The notes: generated by a model from the letters alone, not told the origin. A stretch of DNA of 64,000 bases from an uncultured Holophagales bacterium (GCA_963842525.1 CAWJGT010000001.1:128001-192000); one strand, 5' to 3'. Positions 3,001 to 57,403 are shown, counted from the stretch's first letter. Made by a program: numbers and translations.

Positions 3001-3032
3001 CGCTCTGAGATCATCCGAATTGCCGCCCCCCT

Positions 3033-3242: not shown

Positions 3243-4462
3243 GTGCGCCCGTGAGCGCACACGTTCAGAGAGGTGAAAGTCCTCTTCAGGCATACGCTCT
3301 CCGGCCTGTAACCGAAGGTAACTGCGTCGCCCAAAGCGAGGTGGAGAGCAACCGGAGGTGAGAGACCAGTCCGCAGGAGACGAAATCGATTCGGCCTTGT
3401 GACCCCGACGAGCCTGCAAGCCACTGGCGAAGTCTGGACCCTCAAGGGAGACCCATCGAGCTGAGGGGTAGCGTGCGAAAGCGGCGATGGGGGGGCGTAG
3501 GGTGATTGGATGCAGAATGGTCTCAAAGGACGTGTGACGTGAAGCGGGGAGACCTCGGTCGGGCAGGAGACTTGCCGAGGAGTCAGAGTCCTCATAGGAG
3601 CTGAGAAGCGCCGTAACGGGCGTGGAGCAAAGGGGGACAGGGAGGTGGATGCGTGACGACTGGACAAGCGGAAAGCAACCGCGCGTCAGTGCCTGTAAGG
3701 GCTAAACAAGCCGGAGAAGTCCGGGGCCGGTGGCCCTGGGTGGAACCGCATGTCTGGACGGATCGCATGTTGACGGCCCTCGAAGCTGGGGTCCAAGGAG
3801 GCCAATGGTTCAGTCTGATCGACAAGGTCTATGACTCGCGCAACCTGGACTCTTCCTACCAGCGGGTCAGGCGGAACCAGGGAAGCGCTGGGGTTGACCA
3901 CGTGACGGTCGCGCAGTTCAGCGCCCACCTCGGCAAGAACCTGGAGAACCTGGCGGCTAGTCTGAAAGACGGCAGTTATCGTCCGCAGGCGATTCGCCGG
4001 GTGTGGATACCCAAGCCGGGTAGCTCCGAGGAGCGCCCTCTGGGGATTCCGACGGTTCAAGACCGGGTGGTGCAAGGAGCGCTGCGCAATGTCTTGGAAC
4101 CGATCTTCGAACGGGAGTTTGCAGCCCAGAGCTACGGATTCCGTCCGGGGAGAAGTACCAAGGCTGCGCTGCGTCGCGTCTCGGAACTGCTGGAGGCCGG
4201 CTATACCCATGTGGTGGACGCCGACCTGCGCAGCTATTACGACACGATCCCTCGCCAGGGTTTGATGGCGAGAATCGAAGCGAAGGTATCGGACGGCCGG
4301 GTCTTGGACCTGGTGCGTGCCTTTCTCGACCAGGAAGTGATGGTGGGTCTGGAGCACTGGACTCCTGAGGAGGGAACTCCACAAGGAGCGGTGATCAGTC
4401 CCCTGCTGTCGAATATCTACCTGGACCCTCTCGACCATCAAATGGCCGAACAAGGTTATGAG

Positions 4463-6120: not shown

Positions 6121-6823
6121 GTTATGAGATGGTGCGGTACGCTGATGACTTCGTGATTTTGTGCCGTAGCCGAGAAGAGGCCGAGCGAGCGTTGGCGGAG
6201 GTGGAGGAGTGGACGGCAGCCGCCGGTCTGCAACTTCATCCCGACAAGACGCGCATCGTGGACGCCACCCAGCGGGGTGGCTTCGACTTCCTGGGGTACC
6301 ACTTCGAGCGCGGCTATCGCTGGCCGAGCAAGAAGAGCCTGAAGAAGCACAAGGACACGATCCGTTCCCACACCAAGCGCACGCACGGCATCAGCCTGCG
6401 AGAGATCATCCGCCGAGTCAACGCAGTCCGTCGGGGCTGGTTTGAGTACTTCAAACACAGTCACGGCACCACGTTCAAGCCTCTCGACCAGTGGGTGCGG
6501 ATGCGCCTGAGGAGCATCCTTCGCCACCGGCAAGGGAGACGAGGACGTGGCCGGGGTCAGGACCATCATCGCTGGCCGAACGCCTTCTTTGCTGAGCATG
6601 GGTTGTTCTCCTACGTCACAGCCTATGCTCAGGCCCGTCAATCCTCTAGCAGGTAAAACCACCAACTGGAGAGCCGGATGCGGGAGATCCGCATGTCCGG
6701 TTCGGAGGGAGGGGGAGCCGGTACTCAACCGGCCCTCCCTACCCCTATTATGCCCACGCCCCTTCGGGGCTCCTGACGTGGGCAGCCTCGATTCACACCG
6801 ACAAGCCGACGAGAGATGGGCCG

Positions 6824-17837: not shown

Positions 17838-19258
17838 TCAGAGAAATTCTCCCAGAGACTTCTCCCACAGTCGGGCCAGCCGGTCCATCGACTCATACCA
17901 GGGTTTCGCGACCTTCTTGTTCAGGATCGCGGAGGCCGAGGTCAGGGCCCCGGCCACCAACGGCAATTTTCGATCCCCGGTAATCCATAAAGGCTCCGCC
18001 GCGACAGCTTTCCAGCGGTCATCGGAAGCACCCTGCCCGCGTCCGCTGTCCACTTCCCAGAGCTCGAAATTCCCCGAGCTGAGCGCCCTTGTGACCGTCC
18101 ACCCGGCGTCATAACGATACGGGATTTTGCGCAATGCTTCCGGAGACCGGTGGAGGCGATCGTTCGCAGCAAAGTAGAGCAGATGTCCCTCCCCATCAGC
18201 CAACCAGAGCCCAAGCGTCCCGTCGGGTCCCAACAGGGGCTGGAGCTCTTGCCGGAACTGCCGGTCGAGCCACGGGCGATCACCTCCTGGCGCCGCCGGA
18301 AGTTTTTGGTGGCCTGGCGCCAGAGGCCTCGCAACCAATGGGCAGGCGGCTTATAGACGCCACCCCGGGAGCTGATCAACTCGTAGACAAAGGCTGTCAC
18401 ATCCACGAAATCCTCGACGAAGACGACTTCGACATTGGATTTGCTCCACTGGTCCGAGAGCCGTTGCGCGAAGCGAGGGAACAGATCCTGTGAAACTCCC
18501 AAACCCTGCCGTGGCAGCACCTGGACATGAGGTCCGAGGCGGCGGTCCTTGAGCCGGTTGAGATAGCGGACGAGATTGGGATCCGTCAACGTGGTCCCGA
18601 GAAACAACAGCGGACCGCGTGATGCGGCCTTGGGAAGGTCCTCTCCGGGCCAGTCGTGCTCCGGCCGGTAGAGGCGATCGTAGTCCGACTGCGTCAGCAC
18701 GATGTCCTGACTCTCGAGGTACCTGCCGTCCTTGCGCTTCCTTCCCAACAACCCGTGGAGATGATGGACGGTGAAAGAGTCCAGACCGGAGGGATCCAAG
18801 AAATCGAAGCGGCTGAAGCACTTGAGCCCGCTGAGCTCGAAGGCGCGCTCGAGAAGATCGTCGTAATTGGTCGTGAAGAGCTGAATGCCGGTAGGCCCTC
18901 TCGCCTGCGCGAGCGCGCCGACGGCAAAGTGCAGGTGCGACGGCTCGAAGTCGTTTCTGGACTCCCCTCCGAAGAGGGCCTCGGCGATCTTCTGCTTGCG
19001 TGTCGCCGAGCTGACGCCGGGCCCGAAGGCAGCCTCCGCGCCGAGGAGGAATCCCTGCGCCTGGAGCAGAGCCTCGGCGATCTCTTCGCTTCCTTTTCGC
19101 CGCTTGGGCCGGGCCAGCAGGTTCTTGACCAGGTGCGACCAGTCCGGAAGACCTGCCGCGACCGACGCCCCGGCTCCCAGCACGATCGACAAGTGAGACG
19201 CTCGCGAGAGACGCCTCAGCGTCTGAATGGCCTGGGTGGAGAACGAATCGACGCCCAT
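17838..19258 (-). CDS. SIR2-like (SIR2_2) domain protein with unrecognised C-terminal domain, -1 frameshift near 18275
   Basis: IVLGAGAS..GLPDW, TTNYDDLLE, HLHG, LFLG..LTDPNL; adding one C continues the frame to EFL-stop at 17838. Confidence 0.8.
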
Positions 19259-29197: not shown

Positions 29198-29578
29198 TTA
29201 CAGCTTCTGTGCACCCGCCAACTTGCTGAGATCGCCGTCGAAGGTGCCGAGAGGCAGATGTCCAGCTTTGCGAGCCACTTCCAGAATGAGGCAGTCCGAA
29301 AAGCCCAAGGCTGGGCGATTGCGGAGGTGCTGGAGAGCGGCTGCGACGACATCCGACTCCTGGATCATCAGATCCTGATGGTTGAGCAGGATCTCGACGG
29401 CTGTAGCGATCTCGGAGGGACCCTGGCCGTAGACCGCGCGGAGGACCCACAGGGTCTCGACGAGGACGATGTGCGACACCCAGGCCCCTTTGGCGACGAA
29501 CTCCTCGGCGGAGGCAACTTGCGCGGGGTCGTCTCGGACGGTCAACCTGATCAGGACGTTGGTATCAACGGCGCGCAT
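29198..29578 (-). CDS. PIN-domain (VapC-like) toxin
   Basis: MRAVDTNVL, E, FSDCLI, TFD acidic PIN residues. Confidence 0.88.
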   Translation of the reverse strand: MRAVDTNVLIRLTVRDDPAQVASAEEFVAKGAWVSHIVLVETLWVLRAVYGQGPSEIATAVEILLNHQDLMIQESDVVAAALQHLRNRPALGFSDCLILEVARKAGHLPLGTFDGDLSKLAGAQKL

Positions 29579-29825
29579 GGCGCCTCTTGACATACTCCTC
29601 AATCCCTTCCTTCATCTCCTCCAACGACAGGGGTTTGGGAGGTTCCGGGAACAAGGCCCGGTGCAAATCTTCCGAGGTGTAACGGCCGGCTCGGCGGACG
29701 ACGATGTCGTCTCCTTGCTCCTCCCATTCGAGGATGGAGCCCGGGCTCAAGCCCAGCCTGCGACGGACCTCGGCGGGCACGGAAATCTGGCCTTGGGCGG
29801 TCAACTTGGATTGTGCGAGCGCCAT
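29565..29825 (-). CDS. AbrB/MazE-family antitoxin
   Basis: SKLTAQGQISVPAEVRRRLGL.PG; overlaps the PIN gene start. Confidence 0.88.
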   Translation of the reverse strand: MALAQSKLTAQGQISVPAEVRRRLGLSPGSILEWEEQGDDIVVRRAGRYTSEDLHRALFPEPPKPLSLEEMKEGIEEYVKRRHARR

Positions 29826-31767
29826 GGCGTCTATAGTACCACGGTAAGGAAGGGCCCGCCCACCCGTGGACGCGGCGAGCCTGTTGGGCTATGATTGAAA
29901 CGAAATTTCTGAAGAGTCTCCCCAAGGCGTATCTCATTGAGGAGAGGGCATAGCGATGGCACAGCGAACAACAAACGGCCCGCGCATATTACCTCCCCCT
30001 CCTCCTGTGCGGCCCCGGGCTGCTGTTCCGCAGACGGTCCGACCCAAACCGGCGCACGCCGGAGCGCCGCAGGCACGCGTGGCGCCAACAGTGGCGAACG
30101 TCCCCAAGCCGAAGGTTGGTGGATCTGGGCAGGTGGCGGCCCCAGTCAACGCACAAGGCGCAGTACAGGCAGCAGGCCTCAGGCGCTTGACAGGCATTTC
30201 CGCAAGCGAGGCTCTCAGAAGGATTGCGGCGGAGGTGACAGCCACCGGAAACCCTGACCTTGCCGGGCAGAACCGTATTTAGTCCCTTACCAGTGAGATC
30301 TTCGCCAAACTGGTAGCGATTGTACGTCACTTTTCATGCAAGGGCCTCTTGGGCCAATTCGGGAATGAGGAACAGTCGCCTGAGCTTGAGCGCCGCGCAG
30401 ACGACCCTCTGGCCAAGCTGAGTCAAGTAGTACCTGTAGGTGTGACCGATCTTCTTGACCAGACCGTGAGTGCGGAGCCGCTTGAGGATGCGAGCGATCT
30501 GTCCGCTGCTCATCCCAGGCAAGAAAGCCTGCAAGTGACGATTGTGGAAACCGCTGATGTCGAGCTCACCTCGGACGATCACTTCAAAGACGGCGCGATC
30601 GGTGCTGTCGAAGAGGTTGAACCCGCGCTGTATGCGCTGCCCATCGTGGACACGCTTGGAGATCTTCTCCAGATTCTTGATCCCGGCGGTCGGATCTTCC
30701 AGAGCCGAAAGGAACTCGAGATAGCGCCGGTTTGCTGCTCTCATCAACTCCTGGAGGTCAGGCAGACTATAGATGGTCTTCTTGACCGGGGCGTTTTCCA
30801 TCTCCCAGGTGCCATCTCGGTGTTCCACCCTGCGGTGGTGCTTAAAGGATGTCACGTCGTTGCTGGTCGTCTCGATGCGGAGAACGCGGCCCAGTTTGTC
30901 GTACATCTTGATCGAATTGGGGCCCATGTGGTGCTTGATCCGAGTCCCCTCGATCCGGGTATGGAAGTCATTGCCGATCTCGACCTTCGAGCGCTCATCG
31001 AGCTTGCGGCCAAGAAACGTCGCCACGTTGTCTGGTTTTACCGTATGGATGGCAGTACGGACCAAAACCTCGTAGAGAGATTCGAGGTCGGCCTTGCTGC
31101 GAAAGATGATGTCCGTGGAGTACTCAATCTGCATCACGCTCCAGTGATAGCCGCCCTTGAAACGGACGCCGACCGGGCACAGCCATGTGGCGACTCGGTC
31201 AAGGATGCCGTGCAACCCATCCACGCGCATGTCGTCGGCCAGCTTTTGGGCCTGCTCAAAATCGGCGATCTCGACAAGGGCGTTATCAGCCATCTGGAAG
31301 CCGATCCCGGCTTTCTTCAACTGGCTTGCCAACCGGTTGTGGCCGTTGTAGTAGAACTGCAGACGAAAAGGAGCCCAGGTCGGCACACGCAAGTAGCAGA
31401 GTCCCAGACCCTCCCAGACGAAGTAGAAGTAGTAGTGGAGGCACTTCGCCTCGGTCGACTTCAGGAAGGTCTTGCCGGTCTTCTTGTCGTGCCAGGGCCT
31501 GAAGGAAGAGCAAGGCTCCATAGCCGAGAAGATGTGGACCAGGCCCGGGTGGTCACCGCGCTTCCCCAGAATCTCCTTGATCCGCTCCTCTTTGCGAAAG
31601 TTTCTCCGCCTGATGAACTCTATCGTCAGGCCCGCCTCGGCGGCCAGGCGTTCAGCGTGCTTGCGGATCTCATCGCGCAGCGGCTCGGCAAACCGGGTGT
31701 AGTCGAAGATCCGGATGCCTTGGGAGCCAAGATAGGCACTCATCGCTCCAGCATGGCAGATCTCAGG

Positions 31768-33421
31768 GTATCTGTTTACCGTCAGCGGCACTTTTGGGGA
31801 AGGTTTTCCCTGGACACACGTCCGCGCTGGCCAGGCGACCTGACGAGGGCGAGCGGCTACCGACCTGGAGCCACGGATAACTCGTGGCGAGAACTGTTAC
31901 GGTGGCTGTGACGCAGGAAGTATTGCCTCAAGCTTCGGTAGCTGGGGGCTGCGCAGAAGCTGGGGCAAGATCTCGAGTGTCCCGACTTGGTGTTGCTGAA
32001 ATGTGCGCAGGGCACTCATCAAGACCGCTTGCGCCTGGGACCCCTCGGCCGTCCGATTTCCCCCAGATGTCTTGCGGTTGATGACCGCCGGGCGAATCCC
32101 TTGTTCGGCCGGCCAATTGGTCGCCTCCACATCCGTGCGTTCCAGGAAGACAAACAGCTGCTCCTGGTGACGTATCAAATGCTGAGCCAGACGCTGGTTG
32201 TCGGGGTTCGTGAACTGCCCCGACAGACGCCTTTCCATCTGGAGCTCCAAGTCCTGCTTGACCTTCTCCAGCGCCTCGCCGCTGAGCTTGCCCGCGTCCC
32301 GCTGATCTCGCGCCTCCAAGGCGGCCTGCAGGATCTCTTTCACCGCCCGAGGAAAGCGCACCGCACCCCCTGTCGCCTTCTCCAGCAGCTCCTCGCAACG
32401 GCGCAACAGATGCGCCAGACAGGTCTGATGAGTCGCTTCTTCAAATTTCTGATAGGGAGCCCAACCATCAGCCACCAGCACGCCGACAAAGCCCTCCCCC
32501 AGGACCTCAGAGGCCTCGGCATAGCCACGACCCGGCTGGATGCTGTAGACCGTCTCGCTGCGATTGGTGAACACCCACAACCACACGCTATAGCCCCCCT
32601 CCCGCCAGCCCGTCTCGTCCGGGTACACCACAGGAGAGCTCCGGATCTTCGCCTTCAGCTCCTCGTACAAGGGCTCCAGCTTCTTACTCATGCGAAGCAG
32701 CGCGCGGCACAGGGCCGAGCGCGACACAGACAGTCCAGCCAGCTCCTTCAGCAACGCGGCGATCTTGCCGTAGCTCAAGCCTCCGACCTTGTTGAGCCAG
32801 GCGGCGAGCCCCAACACGTTTGGACCGAGTTGCACGTTGCCGACCCGGAACGCCTGGGAAGTCTGGCGCGGGTGACGCCCCACAGCTTCCCGGCCACATG
32901 CCGAGCACTTCCCATAATGGAGGATGAACTCCGTCGTCACCGGCCGAATCGGCGGCAGATCGGTCTGATACTGGCGAGCTTCGCCCTGCGGAATGACCTG
33001 ACCCCCACAGTGCTCACAATACAGCGGGCACTCCACCACGATGGTTTCGTCGACGTGATCGGGCACAGCTCGAGTCGCTTGCTGACCATATTGATCCCCG
33101 GCTTTGCGCCCTGGAGACTTGGGATCCTCGCTCGGATCTCCCTTCGAGAAGGGGGCAGCCTGGCGTTTGCCCCGGCGCCGTAGCTCCTCGACAAGTTTCT
33201 CCAGATCGACGATTCGGCGCTTCAGGTGCGCAATCTGGCGCTCCTGCTCCTCCACCCGCTGGCGAAGCTCACCGTTGTCTTGGCGAAGCTCAGAGTTCTC
33301 TTGAAGGAGTTCCTCGTAAGTCGGCATGCCTGAAAGACATTAGACCATGCCGAGAAGAGAACTTACCCTTGCGGACGTGCCACCGCTCGGGGAAGGCGGC
33401 ACTAGGGCGGTAAACAGATAC
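31768..33421 (-). mobile_element. IS66-family element, copy 2, 1654 bp
   Basis: Same GTATCTGTTTACCG inverted repeats; 8-bp duplication ATCTCAGG at 31760-31767 and 33422-33429. Confidence 0.94.
31897..33327 (-). CDS. IS66 transposase, intact (476 aa)
   Basis: DETG, ADG, QTCLAH, TNWPAE motifs; uninterrupted ORF. Confidence 0.93.
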   Translation of the reverse strand: MPTYEELLQENSELRQDNGELRQRVEEQERQIAHLKRRIVDLEKLVEELRRRGKRQAAPFSKGDPSEDPKSPGRKAGDQYGQQATRAVPDHVDETIVVECPLYCEHCGGQVIPQGEARQYQTDLPPIRPVTTEFILHYGKCSACGREAVGRHPRQTSQAFRVGNVQLGPNVLGLAAWLNKVGGLSYGKIAALLKELAGLSVSRSALCRALLRMSKKLEPLYEELKAKIRSSPVVYPDETGWREGGYSVWLWVFTNRSETVYSIQPGRGYAEASEVLGEGFVGVLVADGWAPYQKFEEATHQTCLAHLLRRCEELLEKATGGAVRFPRAVKEILQAALEARDQRDAGKLSGEALEKVKQDLELQMERRLSGQFTNPDNQRLAQHLIRHQEQLFVFLERTDVEATNWPAEQGIRPAVINRKTSGGNRTAEGSQAQAVLMSALRTFQQHQVGTLEILPQLLRSPQLPKLEAILPASQPP

Positions 33422-33846
33422 ATCTCAGGCAGAGTCCCCGTGATCACGACCCGGTCAAAGCAGGAAAGAACTCCCAAAATCTGGTCCGTATACCGTTCCG
33501 TCAACGCAACCATCAGCGTGCCCTCCAAAGATGCCGAAACACCTGCCTCGGCAACCCCAAGAGCATACCCTCTCTCTCTTTCCGCTACTTGTTTGGTTCC
33601 GGCTCGGCCGGGTTAGGGCTACGTGCAGGAACGGAGATGGTTTCAATGCAAGCTGGCCTCAAGCGATCTTTGAACAGTGGCGAGCTAACAATAGGGAGGT
33701 GGCAAGAAGGCGAGTTATGGACACGACGGTACCGTGGCCTGATAACGATGCGGAAGCCTTGGTGGTGGATCGACTCATCGGACAGATTCAGACTGCGCGA
33801 ATGCGGACGAATGGCGGTACGTTGTCGTTGTCCGCCACAGGCACTA

Positions 33847-35014
33847 GTGTAGTGGGTCTGATATCCGGTAACCTGTGTTACCCTCTCCTGGTCTGCCGTA
33901 CCTCCAGGAGGAAAGAAGATGCGGGTTGCGGTTGAGGTAGTTCTCTCGGCAGAGGAGAGAGAAGAGTTGGAGAGACTGGCGGGAGGCCGGAAGGTCCCTG
34001 CGCGTGTTGTGGAGAGAGCGAGGATCGTCTTGCTCGCTGCCGAGGGCAAGCAGGACCGGGAAATCGCGAGACTCTGCGGTGTGGTGCGTCAGACGGTGAG
34101 TCGTTGGCGCCGTCGATTTGTCGAGAGGCGAATCGCCGGCCTTCTGAAGGACGCTCCGCGGCCTGGACGAAGGCGGCGGATCAGCGAGGAAGTGATTCGG
34201 GAGATCGTTCGCAAGACAACTCAAGAAACGCCTAAGGGCCGGACTCATTGGAGCACCCGCAGCCTGGCTAAGGTGATGGAGTTGAGCCCGAGCACGATAG
34301 GTCGAGTGTGGAGGAGTCACGGCTTGAAGCCGCATTTGTCTCGTACCTTCAAACTGAGCCGGGATCCGAAGTTTGTGGAGAAGTTGGACGATATCATTGG
34401 TCTCTATATGAATCCTCCCGAGCACGCTTTGGTGCTCTCTGTCGATGAGAAGAGCCAGATTCAGGCGCTCGACCGAACCCAGCCGGGGCTTCCGCTTGTC
34501 CGAGGTCGTGCTGGGACAATGACCCACGACTACAAGCGCCATGGGACGACAACTCTGTTCACGGCGCTCAATACGTTGGATGGGACGGTGATTGGAACCT
34601 GTATGCCCCAACATCGTCATCAAGAGTGGATCAAGTTCCTCCGTCTCATCGACCGCGAGACCCCGAAAGACAAGGACATTCACCTGATCGCTGATAACTA
34701 CGCGACTCACAAGCACGCCAAGGTCCGGGCCTGGTTGGAGAGCCATCCGCGGTTCACCGTTCATTTCACGCCAACCAGCGCCTCGTGGCTCAACATGGTC
34801 GAGCGCTTCTTCCGCGACATCACAGAGAATCGACTGCGCCGGGGAATCTTTCGCAGTGTGGGGGATCTGATTACCACCATTGACGAGTATCTGGTTCATC
34901 ACAACCAAGATCCCAAACCCTACATCTGGACGAAGTCCGCCAAAGATATCCTGGAGAAGGTCACCCGTGCCCAGAACGCACTACTTAAGAGCGCATCTGT
35001 GTGACCCACTACAC
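33847..35014 (+). mobile_element. IS630-family element
   Basis: Inverted repeats GTGTAGTGGGTC/GACCCACTACAC flanked by duplicated TA in a CTAG target. Confidence 0.93.
33919..35004 (+). CDS. IS630 transposase (361 aa)
   Basis: N-terminal HTH, SVDEKSQIQAL, HDYKRHGT, ADNYATH, SWLNMVE. Confidence 0.94.
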   Translation: MRVAVEVVLSAEEREELERLAGGRKVPARVVERARIVLLAAEGKQDREIARLCGVVRQTVSRWRRRFVERRIAGLLKDAPRPGRRRRISEEVIREIVRKTTQETPKGRTHWSTRSLAKVMELSPSTIGRVWRSHGLKPHLSRTFKLSRDPKFVEKLDDIIGLYMNPPEHALVLSVDEKSQIQALDRTQPGLPLVRGRAGTMTHDYKRHGTTTLFTALNTLDGTVIGTCMPQHRHQEWIKFLRLIDRETPKDKDIHLIADNYATHKHAKVRAWLESHPRFTVHFTPTSASWLNMVERFFRDITENRLRRGIFRSVGDLITTIDEYLVHHNQDPKPYIWTKSAKDILEKVTRAQNALLKSASV

Positions 35015-35141
35015 TAGTATTTGTACTTATTGCCGCAGACTCATTCGGAGCTTCTGTAGGCACTACGGGCTCACCTGGAGTAACGATCCGCAGTAGTTCA
35101 CGGATTCTCCCCCTTTCCCTCCCGCCCGAGAGAAGGAGAAA

Positions 35142-35200
35142 TTCCCCTTGACACCTTAGGGGAACCCGCCGTACCATCTCCCCTGGACATCTTAGGGGAA
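35142..35200 (+). promoter_or_regulatory. Two imperfect palindromic operators overlapping the padR promoter and RBS
   Basis: TTCCCCTTGACACCTTAGGGGAA and CTCCCCTGGACATCTTAGGGGAA; TTGACA at 35148 and TACCAT at 35172. Confidence 0.75.
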
Positions 35201-35207
35201 CGAAACA

Positions 35208-35540
35208 ATGGCCAAACTGGATCTGCTGCAAGGAACCCTCGACGTTCTTATTTTAAAGGCGCTCTCGTGGGGGCCGCTCCATGGGTATGCGGTGGTGCGC
35301 TGGATCGGCCGGCAGACGGGCGATGTGCTCCGCATCGAGGAAGGCGCCCTCTATCCGGCGCTCCACCGGATGGAGGAGCGGGGGTGGATCGAGGCGGAAT
35401 GGGGAATCTCGGAGAACAACCGGCGGGCCAAGTTCTACCGCATGACCGACCTCGGCCGGCGCCAGCTCCATACTGAAGCCGAATCCTGGCAGCGCTACGC
35501 CGATGCGGTCGGCAGAGTCCTTCAGGCCGCCGCGGCCTGA
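35208..35540 (+). CDS. PadR-family transcriptional regulator (acidobacterial type)
   Basis: LLQGTLDVLIL, HGY, EEGALYPALHR, SENNRRAKFY. Confidence 0.93.
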   Translation: MAKLDLLQGTLDVLILKALSWGPLHGYAVVRWIGRQTGDVLRIEEGALYPALHRMEERGWIEAEWGISENNRRAKFYRMTDLGRRQLHTEAESWQRYADAVGRVLQAAAA

Positions 35541-35554
35541 GAACGGAGACGATC

Positions 35555-38257
35555 ATGGCAATCTGGCGGCGCGCTTTCCGTCTCCACATCAAGGGCGGCA
35601 CGGTCGATCGGGACGTCGACGACGAGATCGCCTTCCATGTCGAAACACTGACCGAGGAGCTGGTCGAGGAAGGGATGGCCCCGCATACGGCGCGGGAGGA
35701 GGCCGTGCGGCGGTTCGGCGACCTGGCGCGAGTGCGCCGGGACTGCGTCGAGATCGGCCGGCGCCGGCAGAAGGCGAAGCGGCGCGTCGAGGTCTTCTCG
35801 GAGCTGAAACAGGACGCTGTCTTCGCCTTCCGGCAGCTTTGCCGGGCGCCCGGGCTCACCCTGGTCGCCGTCCTCACCCTGGCCCTGGGTATCGGCTCGA
35901 CGGCCGCGATCTTCAGCGTCCTTCATGCCGTGGTGCTGCGCCCGCTGCCGTTCCCGCACCCGGAGCGCATCGTCCATCTCTGGTCCCTGGAACGGGGCGA
36001 GGAGCGCTCTCTCTCGCCCGGCAACTTCTTCGCGTTCCGCAACGAGGCACAGTCGCTCGAGCACCTCTCGGCCTTGCAGAACGCGAGCTTCAACCTGACA
36101 GGAGACGGCCTGCCGGAACGCATCCTCGGCGCCCGCGTCTCGGCCGGCTACTTCGCGGCGTTCCAGGCACGGCCGGAGCTCGGCCGCGTCTTTTCCGAGG
36201 CGGAAGACCAGCCCGGCCGCGAGCAGGTCGTGGTGCTCTCCTCGCAGCTCTGGCATGACCGTTTCGGGGCAGACCCTCGCGTCGTCGGGCGCCCCATCCT
36301 TCTCAACGGGCTGCCCTATACGGTGGTTGGCGTCATGCCCGCCTCCTTCAGCCTGCGCGCGGACGGCCCGCAAGTGTGGGCGCCCATGGCCCTGGAGACC
36401 GAGAAGGCGACGGAATTCGGCCATAACTATCTGCAGGTGTTCGGCCGCCGGCGGCCCGGCATCTCCCTGCAGGAGGCCCAGAGCGAGGTCACGGCGCTCG
36501 CCCGGCGGCTGGAGGAGCGCGCTCCGGACGACAACCGGGGCAAAGGTGCGCTGCTCGAAGGTTTTGGAAACCGGCTCGTCGGCGGCTACCGCCAGCGGTT
36601 CCTTATCCTCCTGGGCGCGGTCGGGTGCGTCCTGCTGATCGCCTGCGTCAACGTGTCCAACCTGCTCCTCGCGCGCGGCGCGGCCCGGTCGCGGGAGATC
36701 GCGATCCGCGCCGCCCTCGGCGCCGGACGCGGGCGGATCGTCCGCCAGCTCTTCACCGAGAGCCTCGTGCTGGGCCTCGCCGGGGCCGCCGCGGGCCTGG
36801 CGCTGGCTTACGGAGGCGTGCGCTTCCTGGTGGCGATCAGCCCGCCGGGCGTGCCGCGCCTGGAGCAGGCGGCGATCGACGGCACGGTGCTGGCCTTCCT
36901 GCTCGCCGTATCACTCGCTGCGAGCCTGGCCGTCGGGTTGATGCCGGCGCTGCGGACCACGCGGCCCGACCTTCAGGGCATGCTCAAGGAAGGCGGCAGG
37001 AGCCTCGGCGGCTCACCGCGCGACCGTGTGCGCTCCACGCTCCTGGTGACCGAGGTGGCCCTCGCCCTGGTGCTCCTGGCCGGCGCGGGCCTGCTGATCC
37101 GTAGCGCCATCCGCCTCCAGCAGGTCGAGATGGGCTTCGACCCCGAGGGTGTCCTCACGGCGCAGATCTCGCTGCCGTCGAGCGACTATCCCGACAACAG
37201 CCGGATCGTCGCCACGGCCCTGAGGATCATCGAAGAAGTCGAGCACCTGCCGGGGGTCGAGTCGGCAGCGGCCGCCTCGATCCTTCCGTTCTCGCGCTGG
37301 AACACCTCCTCGACCTTGACGATCGAGGGCCACGTCACGCAGGACCGAAGCGAGCAGATCGACGGCAACACCCGGGTCGTCACCCCCGGTTACCTTCATA
37401 CGCTGGGGGTCCCGCGGCTGCGCGGGCGCGACTTTACACCGGCGGACCGCGAGGACGCTCCCGGCGTTGTCGCGATCAACGCCACCCTGGCCCGCATGGC
37501 CTGGCCGGGGGAGAACCCCATCGGCAAGCGCCTCGCCTACTCCGCCACGGACGACGAGCCCGACTGGCTGGAGGTCGTCGCGGTCGTAGGGGACTTCCGG
37601 CAGGGCCGGGTCGAGCGGGCGGTGCAGCCCGAGCTCTACCTCCCGTTGCCCCAGGCGGTCGGCTTCCTCCAGAACGGCAACGGCGCCTCCGTCGCAATTG
37701 TGGCCAAAGCATCGGCCCGAGCGCCGGCCAAACCCTGGGCGCGTCGAAGGAGCGACCCCTCCACCCTCGCGGAGCCGCTGCGCCGGGCCGTCCAGGCAGT
37801 CGATCCCCGGCTGCCGGTCTTCGACCTCAAGACCCTCAACGAGATCCGCGCCGCCTCGGTGGCCATAAACCGTTTCAACACGCTGCTGCTGACGGCGCTC
37901 GGGGTGATCGGCCTGGTGCTCGCGGCAGTGGGGATCTATGGAGTGATCGCCTACTTCGTCAGCCAGCGCACGTCAGAGATCGGCGTGCGGATGGCTCTCG
38001 GCGCCACCAAGGGACGGGTTCTGGTGATGGTCGTGCTGGAGGCCATGCGCCCGGTGGTGGTCGGCCTGGTCCTGGGCCTCGCCGGCGCCTTCGCCGCAAC
38101 CCGTGCGATGGCCAGCCTCCTCTTCGGCGTCACCGCGACCGACCCGGCGACCTTCGCAGGCGTGCTCGTGGTCCTGGCCGCCGCGGCGCTCCTGGCGAGC
38201 TGGCTGCCGGCCCGGCGGGCGGCCGAGGTGGACCCCACGCGGGCGCTGGCGCCTTAG
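35555..38257 (+). CDS. ADOP-family duplicated ABC permease (MacB/FtsX domains)
   Basis: DDEIAFH prefix, LTLALGIG, LLIACVNVSNLLL, REIAIRAALGA, EIGVRMALGA, WLPARRA. Confidence 0.92.
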   Translation: MAIWRRAFRLHIKGGTVDRDVDDEIAFHVETLTEELVEEGMAPHTAREEAVRRFGDLARVRRDCVEIGRRRQKAKRRVEVFSELKQDAVFAFRQLCRAPGLTLVAVLTLALGIGSTAAIFSVLHAVVLRPLPFPHPERIVHLWSLERGEERSLSPGNFFAFRNEAQSLEHLSALQNASFNLTGDGLPERILGARVSAGYFAAFQARPELGRVFSEAEDQPGREQVVVLSSQLWHDRFGADPRVVGRPILLNGLPYTVVGVMPASFSLRADGPQVWAPMALETEKATEFGHNYLQVFGRRRPGISLQEAQSEVTALARRLEERAPDDNRGKGALLEGFGNRLVGGYRQRFLILLGAVGCVLLIACVNVSNLLLARGAARSREIAIRAALGAGRGRIVRQLFTESLVLGLAGAAAGLALAYGGVRFLVAISPPGVPRLEQAAIDGTVLAFLLAVSLAASLAVGLMPALRTTRPDLQGMLKEGGRSLGGSPRDRVRSTLLVTEVALALVLLAGAGLLIRSAIRLQQVEMGFDPEGVLTAQISLPSSDYPDNSRIVATALRIIEEVEHLPGVESAAAASILPFSRWNTSSTLTIEGHVTQDRSEQIDGNTRVVTPGYLHTLGVPRLRGRDFTPADREDAPGVVAINATLARMAWPGENPIGKRLAYSATDDEPDWLEVVAVVGDFRQGRVERAVQPELYLPLPQAVGFLQNGNGASVAIVAKASARAPAKPWARRRSDPSTLAEPLRRAVQAVDPRLPVFDLKTLNEIRAASVAINRFNTLLLTALGVIGLVLAAVGIYGVIAYFVSQRTSEIGVRMALGATKGRVLVMVVLEAMRPVVVGLVLGLAGAFAATRAMASLLFGVTATDPATFAGVLVVLAAAALLASWLPARRAAEVDPTRALAP

Positions 38258-38297
38258 CATCCCCAAGGGTTGGGCCATCATGGCCAAACCGCCTCCC

Positions 38298-38405
38298 GTA
38301 GGGGCAACCCTTGTGGTTGCCCTGCATCGCCTGCCCCTGCGGTGGGAAAATGCGCAGCGGCCGCCACGTGGCAAGACCGTGGGCAACCACAAGGGTTGCC
38401 CCTAC
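38298..38405. repeat. Inverted pair of GTAG-type REP sequences
   Basis: GTAGGGGCAACCCTTGTGGTTGCCC (38298-38322) and its exact reverse complement (38381-38405) between convergent genes. Confidence 0.85.
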
Positions 38406-38463
38406 AGGAGGGGATCGGATGCACCCCACCCCCTGCCAGGCATACCCGGGCAAAGGTGAGGGC

Positions 38464-39557
38464 TCACCCCCGATCTGCATGAAGCTGACGAGGTTGCCGT
38501 AGTTGCCCTGGGTGAGCATGTGCTCGGCCGGCTTCTCGGCCAGGACGCGCAGGATCTCGGCTTCGAGCGCCGCCTCCGGGTCGTCCGCGGCCAGGAGGTG
38601 GCGCAGGGGGTGGACCCGGTCGGCGAAGAGGCAGAGGCGCAGCTCGCCGCGGGCGGTCAGGCGCAGGCGGTTGCAGTCGGCGCAGAAGGTGTGGGAGAGC
38701 GGGGTGATGAAGCCCACGGTGCCCTGGGCCCCCGGCAGGCGGAAGGCCTTCGCCGGGCCGGTGCGTGGGCCCGCCTCGGCCTCGCTCACCGGTGTCAGGG
38801 CTCCGAAGCGCTCCTCGATCCGGGCGCGCACCTCGTCCGACGAGACGTATTCGGCCGCGTGCAGGTGCTCGGTGCTCGCCGTCGGCATCAGCTCGATGAA
38901 GCGGACGGCCAGCGGCCGGTCGAGGGTCAGGGCGACCAGCCGCTCGACGTCCTTCTGGTTGGTCCGCAGCAGCACGGTGTTGAGCTTGACCGGCTCCAGG
39001 CCGATGGCGAGGGCCGCCTCGACGCCGCGCCAGACCTGCTCCACGTCGCCCGTCCGGGTGATCTGCCGGAAGGTCTCGGGGTCCAGGCTGTCGAGGCTGA
39101 CGTTGACGCGGTCGACGCCGGCCTCCTGGAGCGCGGGCGCGAGGCGCTCGAGCTCGGTGCCGTTGGTCGACAGGGCCAGGTTCTCGATCCCGGGCAGCGC
39201 CTTGATGCGGCGGGCGATCTCCAGGATGTCCTTGCGCACCAGCGGCTCGCCGCCGGTGAGGCGGACGCGGCGGATGCCCAGGCGCGCCAGAGCGCCGACC
39301 AGGGTGCCGATCTCTTCCGCCGTGAGGAGGTCGCGGTCGCCGAAAGGAAACTCGGCGTCGGCCGGCAGGCAATAGGTGCAGCGCAGGTTGCAGCGGTCGG
39401 TCACCGACACCCGCAGGTAGGTCAGGCGCCGGCCGAACGAGTCGACGAGACGGCTGCCTCCGGCCTCTCCAGGAAAAATCCGGACAGGGATGGGCGGCGG
39501 CTTCTCGGGAAGGTCAGGAAGGATCGCGGCGGATCCGATCGTCACCAGGCGGTCCAT
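38464..39557 (-). CDS. moaA: GTP 3',8-cyclase (stop displaced by a probable 1-nt deletion in a G run)
   Basis: YLRVSVTDRCNLRCTYC, LTGGEP, FCADCNRLRLT, C-terminal MQIGG. Confidence 0.93.
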
Positions 39558-39788
39558 GGTCTCCTCGGTTTCTCCTCATAGGACCACCGAGCCGCACGGG
39601 TGAGCGGATCGGCCCGCCTTTCCAAGCACGGGAGGCGACCCGGTTTCCCGGGCCACCCTATCGGCCTGCCCTCCCGCCGTTGTCCGGGTAGGGTCGAGCA
39701 GGCTCGGTGGGCCTGGGCCTCATTCTACTCCAGGGGAGGCGGGAGGGCGAGACCCTCCCATGGCTCCATGCCTCCGGATCTCGCGGGC

Positions 39789-47674: not shown

Positions 47675-48296
47675 TTGAAGATCGAGACCGCGGAATTCGT
47701 CCGCTCCGCTCACACGAGCGGAGACTTCCAGCGGGACGGGCGTCCTGAGGTCGCCTTCGTCGGGCGTTCCAACGTCGGCAAGTCGAGCCTGATGAACCGG
47801 CTGCTGGGGCGCCGCGGGCTGGCCAAGACCAGCTCGACGCCGGGCCGGACGCGGTCGATCAACTACTTCCTGGTCAACCGGCGCTTCTGGTTCGTGGACC
47901 TGCCGGGCTACGGCTACGCCAAGGCCGGGAAGGACGAGCGGCGGGAGTGGGCGGCGCTGGTGGAGGCGTATCTCCACGCGGAGCAGCCCGAGGCCCTCCG
48001 GAAGCACCGGAAGACGGTGGTGCTGCTCGTCGACGGGAAGGTCGGGGCGACGCCGCTCGACGTGCAGGCGTACGGGTACCTGGGCAGCCTGGGAGCCGCG
48101 ATCATCGTCGTGGCGACCAAGATCGACCAGGTGCCCCGCGGCCGCAGAGTGCGCGCTCTGCGCCAGGTCCGGGAGGCTCTCGGCCTGGAGGAGACAACCC
48201 CCCTCATCGCCGTGTCCGCGCTTTCGGGCGATGGGATGAAGGAGCTTCTGGGGCGCCGTCGCGTCCCAGTTGGAATCGAGCACAAGAGAAGGATGA
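47675..48296 (+). CDS. engB: Ribosome biogenesis GTPase EngB/YihA (probable +1 error near 48247)
   Basis: [19 protein letters not shown]; removing one base gives [18 protein letters not shown]-stop. Confidence 0.9.
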
Positions 48297-48316
48297 TTCA
48301 AAGGACGAGGAACAAC

Positions 48317-49618
<1,302 letters not shown>

Positions 49619-51752: not shown

Positions 51753-54700
51753 ATGAATCTTTCCATCAGTGCCAGCGACATTGAAAAGGCCTTGGCTGAC
51801 CTTGTCTCACACGAGGAGGGGACGAGATTCCAGCGTCTGGCGGTTGTCCTCGCAAGGCAGAGGTGGAGTGAACTCATTGCGTGTGAACGCAAGTGGGATC
51901 TTGGGTTGGATGCGTACGCAGAATCCGTGCTCTCTCCTGATGGAGTCGGCAAAGGCCTTGCGTGCTCACTGACGGCCAAAATTCAGAAAATCAAGGGCGA
52001 CGCTGCCAAGATCCATAAGAACTACCCAGACGTGAAGATTTTGATCTTCGCGACGCCATCCCCCGTCACTCAGCACACAAAGAGTAAGTGGGAGAAGGAT
52101 GTCTTAAAAGAATTTGGCTACAAGCTGGTTGTCCTCTCTCGCGAGGCATTCATCGCCGATTTATTGAATCCCTCCAACGCATCGATCTGCCGAACCCTGT
52201 TGCGCATCAATGTCCCTTTTCAAGAATCAGACGGGGAGATCCTCGAGAGAGCGAGGCTTGCAGCCTACGCAGTGACAGAATCCTGGACTGCACATAGGCG
52301 ACTTGCTGGGAAGCCGATAATTGCGCTTCAAGCTGTCAAGCTCGATGAAGCAGGCAAAGAGACCATAGGTACGCTGTCGGACGAAAACATCTATGCCGCA
52401 TTGATGGAAGGTCGTCGGGTAGTGCTCGAAGCTCCTGCGGGGCGAGGCAAGACAACGACACTAATCGAACTCGCAAAACGCAGCGATTCTAAAGTTGTAA
52501 CGCTCCTAGTAGATCTGCCTGCCTGGATACACTCGCATAGAAACGTTCTTGAGTATATAGCATCATCGCCCCAATATAGGTCCCAGAGCGTCGATGTTGA
52601 CGCACTCTCCAAGCTTTCTGCGGGAACTCACTTCATCTTTCTTCTGAATGGCTGGAACGAAGTTGCGGACGCCAATGAAGCCACGAGGGTTTTGATGGAA
52701 CTAGACCGGGACTTCCCAGCAGCTGGGATCATCGTCGCAACGCGTACTCACTATGTAAGCCCGCCGCTCCCGGGATCACTCCGGGCCAGGCTTCTTCCCC
52801 TCAATCGCTCGCAGCGACGAGAGTACTTGACGCGATCACTAGGCAGCCAAGCAGAAACACTCGATTCGAAAATCGCCAATGATCCGGTGCTGGATGACCT
52901 AACTAGAACTCCGTTGTTTCTTGCGGAGGTCACGACGATCTTCCGTTCAGGTGGTTCAATACCAACAACAAAGAGGGGGGTCCTTGATGCAGTGATACGC
53001 TTGTTGGAAGGGTCTGCGGAGCACAGAGATGGACTTCATGGGCCTCCACTTACGGGCCACGCCGCTTACTATCTCGCTGAGCTAGCGACCCAAATGACAA
53101 CCCTGGGGGAGGTGTCTCTTTCAGCGGAGGAAGCGCGCCGGGCTTCTCGCATGGTGAGTGTTAGATTGCGTGATGATGGACAAATTGCGACGTTGCCAGA
53201 GCCGGCATCTGTTCTAGGCACACTTTGTGCGCATCATGTCCTGGAGAGATTCGATTATCCTCGCGTCGAGTTTCGATTCGAGCATCAACAATTCCAAGAG
53301 TTCTATGCCGCATCACTATTGAAGTCTCAACTCTTGGAAGCTATTAGAAACGACGATGAGGACGGAACTCGACGATTTGTAAGGAAATATCTGAACGAAC
53401 CGCGTTGGGAGGAGCCGCTTCTTATGATCGCCGAAGAGATCGGGGCGGCAAGTCGCGAGGCACCTGGAGACGCCGAGCTCCTCAGAGTGGGGAAGGCTCT
53501 GGTTGAAAGAGCGCTCAGCGTAGATCCTATATTTAGTGCGAAGCTTTCACGGCGCTGCGGCGCCCGCGTATGGGACAAGCTTAAAGGCCTAGTTGGCGCG
53601 CGCTTGCGTTCATGGTATCGCGTGCCCGATGCGCGTCATCGGGAGTGTGCGTTGGCAGCTATGCTTGCCACTGGTTCTGACGACTTCGCGGATGTAAGTA
53701 TACCGCTCCTCACTAGCGATAATGAACAAACGCGGCTGGCTGCATATCGTGCTGCGGGGGAATTTTACGTCTCTAGCTTGGGCTCAAACTGGAAGAATGT
53801 AGTGAGCAGATGGGGTGAGGGAGCACGCATCACGTTCGTTACTGAGTTGATCTATAGTCGTTGGGACCTTGAACCGGTTGTGCGCTTTGCCGAAGGTGAC
53901 CCAAGTCCAAGAGTTCGAACTGGCAGCGGTTGAGGCGCTAAGGTGGGTTGGATCTGAGACAGATATAACACGTCTCTTGTTCGCTCTGAATGCGGAGGAC
54001 TTTGAGGCCGCTGTTCAGCGGCTGTTGCTAGAAAGAGTACCAGTCGCTATGAGAGGCCGTGCAATTGCGATCTACCTCAAGGGATTAGAGGATTCGGCGG
54101 ATGCACCAGCGCGCCTCCGTATCATGCTCGCTCTTGACCGAGCTGGTGTTGCAAGTACTCCAGAGAAGTGGCAGGAAGAATTAAACCAGCTACAAGGCGG
54201 CCGTATGGTTGCCGACCTCGAGCCACTACTCGTAGCTTGTCTGGATATTCTTCTAAAGACAGACCCACAATGGGTCAGTCACTGGGTAGCGAGTCGGATC
54301 GTGGAGGGATCTCTATGGTGTGAAAGATGGATACACCTCGTAACGAGTGTTCCGGATTCTTTGAAGGAGCACCTCCTCGAAAGGCTAAGCGGAGAGGGGC
54401 TTCAACATCGAGAAGCGTCGGATGCGATCGCAGTTCTGGCGACAACTGCAGACGTTTCTCTAGTGAAGCATGCGTTCGGCAAGCTTCGCAATATCAGGAG
54501 TGGCCTCTCTCTCGATGATGCAGGTAATGAAGCTCGATGGGCGGTTGTCAGGCAGTTGGATGATCTAATCAGAGCTCTGCCGGCCGCCGTTGCTGTTGAG
54601 GGTTCTTTAGAGTGCCCGGCAGAGACTTTTGATGGAGTCGACTTTCTTGTATTGATCGAATTGCTAAGTTCATTTGGCCGGGATTCCCCTGATCTTAGAG

Positions 54701-56313
54701 ACGAATTGCCCGAGGAGCTGCGTGAAGACCTGCGGAGATCTTTGAAAGCAGGCATGCCGTTTGTTCTGAGCCAAGAAGACTTCAGTGGCAAGATGAAGGC
54801 GGATTTGGTATCCGCGCTGGCCCGCGTAGGGCGGCCGGAAGACATGGTCGATTTGCGCGAGCTTATCTGGGCCGATGTAGAACGGGTCCGGACAGGGCGC
54901 GAAGCCTATGCTCGTGGCGAGCGCAGCGCTATGACGAACGGCTCTTCTATGAGCTATGCTAATTGGAACGTCAGAGCCACAGTTCACCTGGATAGGGAGA
55001 CGGCCGAAGCCGTACTTGTAGAGCTCCTTCAGGCGCCCGAGTATGAGGGGGATGCTGCCCGAGCGCTTCTACTCTTGGCTAGTAGGGGTAAGTACGGTGA
55101 GGAGCGAGCGGTCTACAGGAAGGATTATAGCGGCATTTGGGAGGCGCGATCTAACAAACAGCTTGTCGGGTTTGACGAGGAACTCCGTCAACGTGCTGCG
55201 GGCGCCCTCAAGAACCGCATGCTGGCGCTTTTGGGAGAGCGGGAGGCCCAGGGACAGATTGGGGCACTCGATCATCGATTGAAACAGCTAGCCAAAGTGC
55301 TTGCTGCGCTTGATCCGCGTGACTCAGCTCAACTAGTCATGGACGTTTTAGCTTTGCCTGGCGATTGGGATGGCTGGACACGTGCCGATGCACTTAGCGC
55401 TCTACTGTTCGGCGGCGCTTCATTACCAGCAGGTCGTGTCTTTGCCGTCCTGCGTCCGACCATCGAGATGTTGCATGAGCGCTTGTACGAGAGCACCCAA
55501 AACATGGATCTACTAACGAGGTGCCTCTGTTTGCTACCGTTTGTTGACACCCCCTCCACTGGCATCGAGAGGTTACGCAGTGTCCTGTCGGAAATCAGGC
55601 TTCCGCCGTATGAGGTTCGAGAGATAGTGACAGCGCTCGGATATAGCCGCTGCAACGAGGCCTTGGCTCTGCTCCGAGAACTCGCGTGCGCTGACGGAAG
55701 TGGTCTGCGAGGTATATCGAGAGAGTGGATAGATGCTGTTGCTACAATCTCCGCCCCGGGTTCGACGGAACTATTAATGAGCTTTATAGATGCTGCAGAA
55801 ACAGGCCTCGATTGCGAGTTGGATATAGACAACTACAGCGACGAGCTGTTGGCTCGACGGCTAGCTGACGTGGTGCGTTCAGAAGCATCCATCTTGACGC
55901 GTCTATTACAACTGTGCGAAATGGAACTATCGCTAGCAAGGCGCCTGCTGCTTTCAAAGGTGATCGCGCAGGTGGGAGCCCCGGATGCGGTTTTGGCCGG
56001 CCTTAACCTAATCGACGATAATCTAACTCCGTCTGTTCCGCATGATCTAGGAAGAGCAATCGAAACAGTTGTCCTTGAGAGGCGTCCGTATGGCCAGGCG
56101 GGCAGCTTCACTCTTAGTCCACGAGAATCCAGCCAGATTAGGGCTCGGCTTTTTGCTATGGCCTTAGACGACGATAGGAGAAAGCAGTCAGCTTTTGTGC
56201 TGTTGGGACAAATTGAAGCTTGGCGCCTGCGGTTGGGAAGACCAATGGCTGAGAGTCGGCATCCGGCGTTCGATTCAGGTGAACCATGGCCGCCACTCAG
56301 GGAAGGCGAGTAA
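51753..56313 (+). CDS. Large STAND/NACHT protein (about 1520 aa) with N-terminal restriction-endonuclease-like domain and helical repeats; +1 frameshift near 53918
   Basis: FQRLA...DLGLDA N-domain, Walker A APAGRGKTT, RTPLFL, FEHQQFQEF; removing one A gives PSPRVRLAAVEAL; lower GC than flanks. Confidence 0.78.
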
Positions 56314-56539: not shown

Positions 56540-57403
56540 ATGAGCATCTACGCCACCCTTTGGCGGCTCAAGTTCCCTCGCTATGGGGACGACCACACGG
56601 ACTGCGAGTGGATCGGGGTCATAGCTCAGGGCGTCCCGGCTCATATAGGCACCCCCACGCCTGGCTACGGCTACGAAGAGGGGGACCCTTATTCGAGCTT
56701 CCTGCCGCCCGCCATAGAGGCTTCCCCCAATGAGGAGGGCCGCTTACTTCGTGCGGTGGTGATCGTCACCGAGGGAACACCCAAGGGGACGGAGCGTTCC
56801 GTACAGGAGTACGTCAACCCGCTCCTGACCCTGTCCGGAAAGGCATATGCCACCCTGTTGTTCGGGGAACTCCACGAGAGGATCTGCAACGCACTGCGAG
56901 GCGGCCAGCCGCGCTGGATCGCGGAGTCATGGAACTCGGACGGCAACGTCCAGCTCTTGTTCGAGGACGGCTCGTCGAAGGTCATCCGGCCGAGGCCTGA
57001 GAGACCGCGGAACCAGACCAACTCCCTCGCGGCCCTCCCTAAGCCGTCCCCAGGCGCCCCTCTCCAGCAACTGCACGACCCTGTGACTGGTCGCCTGGAC
57101 GCTTCGAAAGTGGCGGACTATCTCAGTGTGCCACTCAACCAGCTCTCGGGAGCACTGGGGAAGAATTATTCGTCGGTCCACAAGACCCCGGCGGCCGTGT
57201 CCCTCCAGCCCCGACTGCGCTCGATCAAGAGAATCCTCGAAATCCTGGAGCAGGTCTTTCCAAGTCGTTCCTCGGTGCTCGCCTGGCTCAACTGTCCGCA
57301 CCCGGACCTGGGAGGGCGGACACCTCTTGCAGTGATCCTCGAAGGATATCCTGATGCCGTCGAGGACATGCTTGAAGGGGCGCTACTGGGAATCCCCTCC
57401 TGA
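56540..57403 (+). CDS. Unknown N-terminal domain fused to an Xre/MbcA/ParS-type antitoxin domain
   Basis: C-terminal VLAWLNCPHPDLGGRTPL...G.P preceded by an HTH-like segment. Confidence 0.7.
   Translation: MSIYATLWRLKFPRYGDDHTDCEWIGVIAQGVPAHIGTPTPGYGYEEGDPYSSFLPPAIEASPNEEGRLLRAVVIVTEGTPKGTERSVQEYVNPLLTLSGKAYATLLFGELHERICNALRGGQPRWIAESWNSDGNVQLLFEDGSSKVIRPRPERPRNQTNSLAALPKPSPGAPLQQLHDPVTGRLDASKVADYLSVPLNQLSGALGKNYSSVHKTPAAVSLQPRLRSIKRILEILEQVFPSRSSVLAWLNCPHPDLGGRTPLAVILEGYPDAVEDMLEGALLGIPS

Follow-up and report, generated by a model that had tools for sequence, protein, structure and literature searches.

Within a stretch of 64,000 nucleotides from an uncultured Holophagales bacterium (GCA_963842525.1 CAWJGT010000001.1:128001-192000; below, "the window" means this whole stretch), a gene of 636 nt was recovered between positions 29956 and 35096, where it is broken by nested mobile elements. 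The gene belongs to a very rare family and encodes a C-terminal domain with the likely fold of a cytidine deaminase (CDA). That the broken gene is real is close to certain, the fold of its C-terminal domain is likely, and the combined statement, from the broken gene and its very rare family through to the deaminase fold but no further, is considered probable. An earlier note on this DNA had described it as a hidden deaminase-toxin-like gene.

Joining 29956-30278, 33614-33846 and 35017-35096 on the plus strand gave an open frame of 636 nt or 211 aa, and the sequence and its frames proved to be as the earlier note had described them. The first piece (29956-30279) is open over 108 codons, and the TAG at 30280-82 falls on the insertion junction. 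The in-frame part of the second piece (33615-33845) has 77 codons and that of the third (35019-35093) has 25, with the stop at 35094-96. Including the two split codons, the tally is 107+1+77+1+25 = 211 aa, and no internal stop was found within the three pieces. The parts of the gene are listed here with the evidence for each, P0121 being the closest of six intact homologues.

29940..29948, plus strand: Shine-Dalgarno-like AGGAGAGGG, 7 nt 5' of the ATG at 29956; direct reading of the sequence
29956..30278, plus strand: piece 1, Pro/Ala/Val-rich N-terminus and, after it, the first part of the conserved domain (AVQ...EALRRIAAEVTATG...); open frame, match to P0121, alignment of the six homologues
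33614..33846, plus strand: piece 2, insert helix, invariant P.P..DAE and strand 3 (TNGGTLSLSATGT); match to P0121 at E 2.1e-16, alignments
35017..35096, plus strand: piece 3, ICTYCRRLIRSFCRHYGLTWSNDPQ and stop, with the CxxC motif and the last strand; 79% identity to P0121 241-264, E 7e-17

The 77 aa of piece 2 were queried exhaustively against 1.84 billion representative proteins with a cut-off of E <= 0.001. Nine proteins were retrieved, six of which are true relatives (P0121, P0122, P0123, P0124, P0126 and P0129; 143-398 aa, E 2e-16 to 3e-4), stemming from environmental samples. The remaining three were dropped: the match of P0125 is confined to a short repetitive stretch, and P0127 and P0128 are large Flg_new_2/LamG proteins with internal matches at 25-28% identity. 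For the best match, P0121, residues 3-77 of piece 2 aligned to residues 165-239 (E 2.1e-16), residues 15-98 of piece 1 to 76-151 (E 7e-6) and residues 1-24 of piece 3 to 241-264 at the identity and E value listed above. The match to piece 2 lies near the C-terminus in all six homologues, with about 26 residues remaining.

Upon multiple alignment with the six homologues, the pieces abut in order and without gaps at both junctions, and 30 of the 31 columns that are invariant across the homologues are also kept in the window pieces; identity to these pieces is 44% for P0124. Because the pieces tile in order and gaplessly onto six intact proteins, to an extent that chance could hardly produce, the three frames are one gene. 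The earlier note had asked for homologues across the reconstructed junctions, and all six intact proteins span both. As the invariant columns are kept with one exception, no internal stop is present and a Shine-Dalgarno-like site precedes the ATG, the gene looks recently inactivated by insertion and otherwise undecayed.

The family is very rare, with six members in two large protein sets. A profile of the C-terminal part alone retrieved no further member among proteins of 13-256 aa, and the full-length family profile mostly retrieved proteins that have only proline-rich repeats in common with it. The family was not found in two scans of 185,579 species-representative genomes: a scan from a two-sequence alignment gave 35 pattern matches, none of which was confirmed, and a degenerate DNA pattern based on the invariant residues matched once in the window and not at all in 596 Gb. 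There was no match by tblastn of P0121 against plasmid and phage collections, nor of P0131, one of the repeat-bearing proteins described below, against plasmids.

The C-terminal region of about 140 aa carries the invariant motifs P.P..DAE and TNGG.L.L.A.GT.IC.YC..LI..FC..Y..TW, of which the D, the E and both C do not vary between the window and any of the six homologues (seven sequences in all). A structure was predicted with AlphaFold2 for homologue P0124, which at 143 aa is essentially the domain alone (predicted local distance difference test, pLDDT, 82.9; predicted template modelling score, pTM, 0.77). The model consists of a helix (H14-21), two strands (E26-32 and E38-44), an insert helix (H56-74), a helix (H86-101), a strand (E108-114), a helix (H121-134) and a last strand (E136-138). 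This order, Hel1-Str1-Str2-insert helix-Hel2-Str3-Hel3-Str4, is that of the deaminase core in the nomenclature of Iyer 2011. D85-A-E87 opens helix 2 in the model and C120xxC123 opens helix 3.

Profile searches gave sub-threshold matches to two deaminase families. The best-scoring family was Pfam PF24241 (Deam_C; putative cytidine deaminase, C-terminal domain), matched by all six homologues, with P0124 on top (E 8e-6, 26.3 bits against a cut-off of 27) and the other five at 11.8-22.2 bits. These scores were obtained with PF24241.1; P0124 carries a precomputed database label of PF24241.2. The match spans the DAE helix to the CxxC helix and covers only positions ~58 to 103 of the 136 in the profile. 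PF14424, the Pfam family of the BURPS668_1122 toxin deaminases, was matched by two of the six (E 0.018-0.059), at 15.6 bits for P0123 and 13.9 bits for P0124 against a cut-off of 29.6; the other four homologues (at E <= 1) and the window pieces had no match to it. The window pieces gave no match in Pfam or NCBIfam as a whole, since they are too short.

A Foldseek search of the PDB with the P0124 model returned deaminases in 37 of the 39 listed matches. Among these were CDA, APOBEC3H (probability 0.98, root mean square deviation 2.9-3.4 Å), dCMP deaminase, blasticidin S deaminase, DYW and tRNA deaminases, the last of which we take to be TadA-type, as well as DddB/BaDTF3 (chain 9k3e_B) with a template modelling (TM) score of 0.52 on the target. 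The nearest clusters in the ESM Atlas were MsddA-like (0.91), MafB19/Deam_C (0.89) and Toxin-deaminase (0.89), followed by SCP1201-like and YwqJ. The ten best family-bearing Atlas matches all belong to the family or clan of the top one, as is also the case for one third of shuffled proteins.

None of these four lines (Pfam, predicted structure, Foldseek and ESM Atlas) is significant alone; all of them point to a cytidine-deaminase fold. For residues ~100-211, where the earlier note had placed a deaminase, the fold, the placement of the motifs and the nearest families fit that proposal, with the limit that all signals are sub-threshold. The family was filed as a divergent deaminase-fold clade near PF24241 and PF14424 and a member of neither, and it was placed outside PF14424 because the fuller signature (RxxDxExK, CxxCxS) is absent.

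The earlier note had named an Asp as first zinc ligand in the BURPS668_1122 clade of toxin deaminases, and this is borne out by the account of that clade in Iyer et al. 2011 (PMC3239186), where it is given as having DxE and as often truncated after helix 3. Table 1 of the same paper lists RxxDxExK in helix 2 and CxxCxS in helix 3 as its signature. The present family is similar to this clade in the helix (56-74) between E38-44 and H86-101, in the end of P0124 only 5 residues past E136-138, in its position as a C-terminal module of proteins with swappable ends and in the weak PF14424 matches of two of the six homologues. It differs in that the Arg three before the Asp, the Lys two after the Glu and the Ser after the CxxC are absent from all seven sequences, and none of the trafficking domains or Imm2, Imm3 or SUKH neighbours listed for the clade was seen.

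A second comparison concerned the characterised toxins DddA (BaDTF1), SsdA (BaDTF2), BaDTF3/DddB and the MsddA-like toxins (de Moraes 2021, PMC7901873; Vaisvila 2023 preprint, 10.1101/2023.06.29.547047), which have a His or Cys as first ligand, a known delivery (type VI secretion system and others) and adjacent immunity genes. A small CDA-fold C-terminal domain in a modular protein would be common to these and the present family, which also matched 9k3e_B and the MsddA-like cluster. Unlike these toxins, the family has an Asp ligand, no immunity gene was seen, and there was no match at the sequence level.

PPxYRP-type repeats are present in the N-terminal part of four of the six homologues; the corresponding part of the window copy is proline-rich, with the repeats in degenerate form only. 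The full-length profile led to 31 further proteins from environmental and metagenome sources (P0130-P0160) with 2-6 PPxYRP-type repeats; of 40 proteins scanned, 35 had such repeats. The 31 and the six homologues add up to 37 proteins, which fall into 23 unrelated C-terminal groups, 22 of them beyond the deaminase-like one; grouping was by BLASTP at E <= 1e-5 over the last 140 aa, and the patterns for the repeat and the junction were self-defined. Behind the last repeat, 22 of the 31 added proteins have a loose junction-like motif, made up of a pair of hydrophobic residues, a Gln and, in most cases, an Arg.

The C-terminal groups include GNAT acetyltransferases and a weak match to a WHH nuclease. 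Two other groups are of the (H/D)xE...CxxC type; P0133 has a BURPS668_1122-style RTHDAEAK...PCNSC, and a group of five members has H(S/A/G)E...CCQLC. Such a shared N-terminus with many different C-termini matches the architecture of polymorphic toxins. The N-terminal parts of the homologues and the PPxYRP proteins gave no Pfam domain, and a full-text search of the literature for 'PPVYRP' returned no papers.

The encoded protein starts with a proline-rich, probably disordered N-terminus. Its C-terminal domain of ~140 aa would most likely adopt a truncated cytidine-deaminase fold, in which the Asp and the two Cys would hold zinc and the Glu would act as proton shuttle. By analogy with bacterial deaminase toxins, the domain would deaminate nucleic-acid bases and act as a toxin; the chance that it is an active nucleic-acid deaminase toxin is put at slightly under one half. 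The nucleic-acid effector proposed in the earlier note is supported in part, in so far as the predicted domain is like the toxins with a cytidine-deaminase fold.

A number of results weigh against the deaminase reading. Every Pfam match stayed below the gathering score, and no Foldseek match reached E <= 0.001, the best having E 0.014, with TM scores on the query of 0.28-0.42. The homologue profile had no match among PDB sequences at E <= 10, and the homologues had none in NCBIfam, PHROGs or PADLOC. Alignment by hhalign with the two other motif-bearing C-terminal groups brought the motifs into register at a probability of only 0.3-7%. The structure model is that of a homologue with 44% identity and was built on an alignment of nine rows (six full-length proteins and three window pieces); helix 4 and strand 5 are missing from the predicted fold, and Asp is uncommon as a zinc ligand. 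The 64-kb window holds no signal peptide, known trafficking domain or secretion-system gene. No immunity gene was found in it either, and the earlier note was right in seeing none: no immunity-like open reading frame (ORF) lies beside the gene.

Some of these results would suit a protein with a deaminase-like fold that is not a nucleic-acid toxin, being instead a deaminase of nucleotides or small molecules, or a module that binds nucleic acid without catalysis, for the cell's own use. This explanation, which we regard as rather improbable, agrees with the lack of an immunity gene, export signal or secretion system nearby and with the truncated fold, and inactive BURPS668_1122 members have been described in Perkinsus (Iyer et al. 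2011, PMC3239186). However, none of the putative catalytic residues (D, E, C, C) varies among the seven sequences, unlike in inactive domains, three methods place toxin deaminases and not metabolic CDA nearest to the family, and the N-terminal module is common to proteins with swapped C-termini.

An unrelated zinc-binding or redox CxxC domain, whose likeness to deaminases would come from a small alpha/beta fold and a short motif, is improbable to a higher degree. It is favoured by the sub-threshold level of all similarity scores, by the shallow alignment behind the model and by Foldseek TM scores of only 0.3-0.4. Against this, hidden Markov models, predicted structure, language-model features and motif position on the secondary structure, four methods that differ in their inputs, converge on one superfamily, to which the 37 deaminases among the 39 listed structural matches belong, and the ten best family-bearing Atlas matches share one family or clan, with the reservation on shuffled proteins given above. 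The cytidine-deaminase fold is kept here as the preferred reading of the C-terminal domain.

The interruption of the gene is due to three mobile elements, the number given in the earlier note: an IS630, an unclassified element and, carried by the latter, an IS66. Their parts are listed here.

30279..33616, minus strand: unclassified insertion sequence (IS)-like element, ~1.67 kb without its IS66 passenger; interrupts a conserved ORF; limits uncertain by up to 4 nt on each side
30334..31767, minus strand: C-terminal part of the ~505-aa protein of this element, downstream of the IS66; ORF with 90-91% identity to P0001
31768..33421, minus strand: IS66-family element with a 476-aa transposase (31897-33327) and 14-nt terminal inverted repeats; NF033517, PF03050
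33422..33513, minus strand: N-terminal part of the protein of the unclassified element (MVALTERY...GTLPE), upstream of the IS66; sequence reading, homologue alignment
33847..35014, plus strand: IS630-family element with a 361-aa transposase (33919-35004), 12-nt inverted repeats (GTGTAGTGGGTC) and a TA duplication; NF033545, DDE_3

The IS630 transposase matched NF033545 at 302.8 bits as well as DDE_3, and the IS66 transposase matched NF033517 at 264 bits and PF03050 at 3.9e-43. The IS66 is nested within the unclassified element, splits the protein gene of that element and is flanked by an 8-bp duplication, ATCTCAGG, at 31760-67 and 33422-29. Both copies show the features of their families, with nothing unusual: DDE_3 with a helix-turn-helix, a TA duplication and short inverted repeats for IS630, and DDE_Tnp_IS66 with zf-IS66, an 8-bp duplication and terminal inverted repeats for IS66. 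A near-identical second copy of the IS66 is located in the window at ~4463-6120. It splits the reverse transcriptase/maturase of a group II intron (3653-6748), with RVT_1 at 3653-4594, RVT_1 and GIIM at 6069-6653 and an Rfam intron domain at 6669-6748.

The outer limits of the unclassified element are uncertain because TTAG stands at both junctions. For its ~505-aa protein, at least 7999 relatives were retrieved (65-91% identity), mostly from contigs of 1.6-2.3 kb. Of the 120 listed, about 90 by our count lie on contigs below 2.5 kb, and such short contigs are the signature of an assembly-breaking repeat. Searches of the protein against Pfam, NCBIfam, PHROGs and PADLOC revealed no family beyond a C-terminal winged-helix signal, no match to any transposase model and no RNase H, HUH or recombinase fold. 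Its predicted structure (pLDDT 85.4) was found by Foldseek to be weakly similar to TATA-binding protein (TBP) and to Rep_trans (rolling-circle initiators), followed by the C-terminal winged helix.

Two types of copies were compared with the element (L001 3865-5478 and L002 452-2265). A copy on a Paraburkholderia plasmid, with 52% identity in the protein, has the same 5' end, CTAA plus (C/G)CCGGnCGAGCCGGAACCAAACA(A/G)GTAG, and the 3' end ...GACTAA followed by AT is also common to both. A distant subfamily on Burkholderiaceae plasmids forms a sharply bounded unit of 1.8 kb, 93-95% identical inside and unrelated outside, which starts with CTAA and ends with CTAG in four of four different contexts. 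As the two ends differ in this subfamily, the flanking tetranucleotides are not a target-site duplication. Empty sites were not found for the plasmid copies.

The element has no terminal inverted repeats and no target duplication, and a small hairpin adjoins its 5' end. Hairpins at the ends fold no better than shuffled sequence over ~70-83 nt (z +0.3 to -2.0); only the conserved position of the hairpins is suggestive. Elements of the IS200/IS605 and IS91 types have no inverted repeats, no target duplication and a fixed tetranucleotide. The present element is like them in the first two respects, in the tetranucleotide at its junction and in the 5' hairpin, but differs in that its protein matches neither an HUH nor a DDE model, and membership is not claimed. 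It is an unexplained mobile element, abundant in environmental data yet unannotated.

The two junctions of the gene differ in how firmly they can be placed. Junction 2 is unambiguous, since it is marked by the TA duplication of the IS630 (33845-46 and 35015-16); rejoining restores a Ser codon, and three of the six homologues have Ser at that position. The CxxC motif lies beyond the IS630 in piece 3, just as the earlier note had it. Junction 1 is less certain, its flanks sharing TTAG (30279-82 and 33613-16). Removal of 3334 nt, one repeat period, gives an ATT-TAG stop and a frameshift. Removal of 3335 nt, the join of the earlier note, keeps the frame, and the distance from the conserved TATG to the conserved NGD is then the one most common among the homologues. 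Removal of 3338 nt, with both TTAG copies, is in frame too and makes the protein one residue shorter, so that the join first proposed is a possible excision and not the sole one. By the alignment with the homologues, junction 1 must be in frame if the gene was intact when hit.

Two independent insertions disabled the gene, that of the unclassified 1.67-kb element and that of the IS630. The former sits in the predicted hairpin between strands 1 and 2, the IS630 landed just 5' of the CxxC motif, and the IS66 entered the 1.67-kb element later. There is only a very slight chance that separate genes are present instead (an ORF at 29956-30282 ending at the TAG, a minus-strand gene in between and a short CxxC peptide gene from ~33719), for although the TAG is precisely what remains when the insert is cut out in the shared TTAG register and one TTAG might belong to the target by analogy with fixed-tetranucleotide elements, all six homologues are single polypeptides covering pieces 1, 2 and 3 contiguously, conservation continues in one frame through the junction, and the intervening unit is a discrete repeat element.

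The persistence of two insertions in a gene of 636 nt would fit counter-selection of a toxic gene that lacks immunity, the silencing that the earlier note had suggested. They are accounted for equally well if a dispensable gene decayed neutrally in a region rich in insertions. The same IS66 also disrupted the intron and another mobile element.

The genes on either side of the broken gene are as follows.

29198-29602, minus strand: PIN-domain toxin gene; PF01850 4.2e-15
29565-29825, minus strand: MazE/AbrB-type antitoxin gene; PF04014 3.9e-11
35208-35540, plus strand: PadR regulator; PF03551
35555-38257, plus strand: MacB/FtsX permease; PF12704, PF02687

The upstream pair (29198..29825) is an unrelated toxin-antitoxin system of VapBC type and not an immunity gene. 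Downstream, no ORF fits in the gap of 111 nt between the stop of the broken gene and padR. Direct repeats of 22 nt (TCCCCTTGACACCTTAGGGGAA, 91% alike) are located 5' of padR at 35143-35164 and 35179-35200, each with a short palindrome, and likely form an operator pair.

The window as a whole appears to be chromosomal: it carries tig, clpX, lon, rho and mqn genes. Several defence-like genes were observed: a SIR2_2 protein (17945-19258, minus strand), a protein with a NACHT C-terminal domain (53869-56310, plus strand), an Xre/MbcA-type antitoxin (56540-57400, plus strand) and a TIR-nSTAND1 NTPase (61902-63998, plus strand) whose gene is cut off by the end of the window. At 2710-3010, a 55-nt repeat occurs in six degenerate copies with spacings of 40-62 nt, and these adjoin a match to the Acido-Lenti-1 small RNA (3035-3080, minus strand; 38.4 bits against a cut-off of 37). 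This RNA match and the Atlas cluster nearest to the protein of the unclassified element would point to Acidobacteriota as the source. A Moco riboswitch (39599-39721, minus strand) is located upstream of a MoaA-like radical SAM gene (38133-39557). The longest ORF (47675-49615, plus strand) combines an MMR_HSR1 GTPase domain (residues 25-149) with a full Rho factor, and may be a real fusion or an over-extended call over two genes.

The gene described here is one that no ORF caller would report; it was recovered by reading through nested insertions and confirmed by its homologues. In its widest form the finding would comprise a new clade of Asp-ligand deaminase toxins of ~110-140 aa on an undescribed PPxYRP module of polymorphic toxins, together with a new class of transposon (no target duplication, CTAA junction, TBP-like protein without transposase domain), and this combination is doubtful. 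Catalogued domains do not explain export or processing in the polymorphic toxin family to which the PPxYRP module points. Bacterial deaminase toxins are given as the source of DddA-type base editors and of enzymes for methylation sequencing in the accounts cited for DddA and its relatives (PMC7901873; 10.1101/2023.06.29.547047). If the deaminase reading is true, such tools could be developed anew from this small and very rare Asp-ligand clade, which would also allow one to test how much of the fold is dispensable. The 1.67-kb element may hold more general interest than the gene it interrupted.

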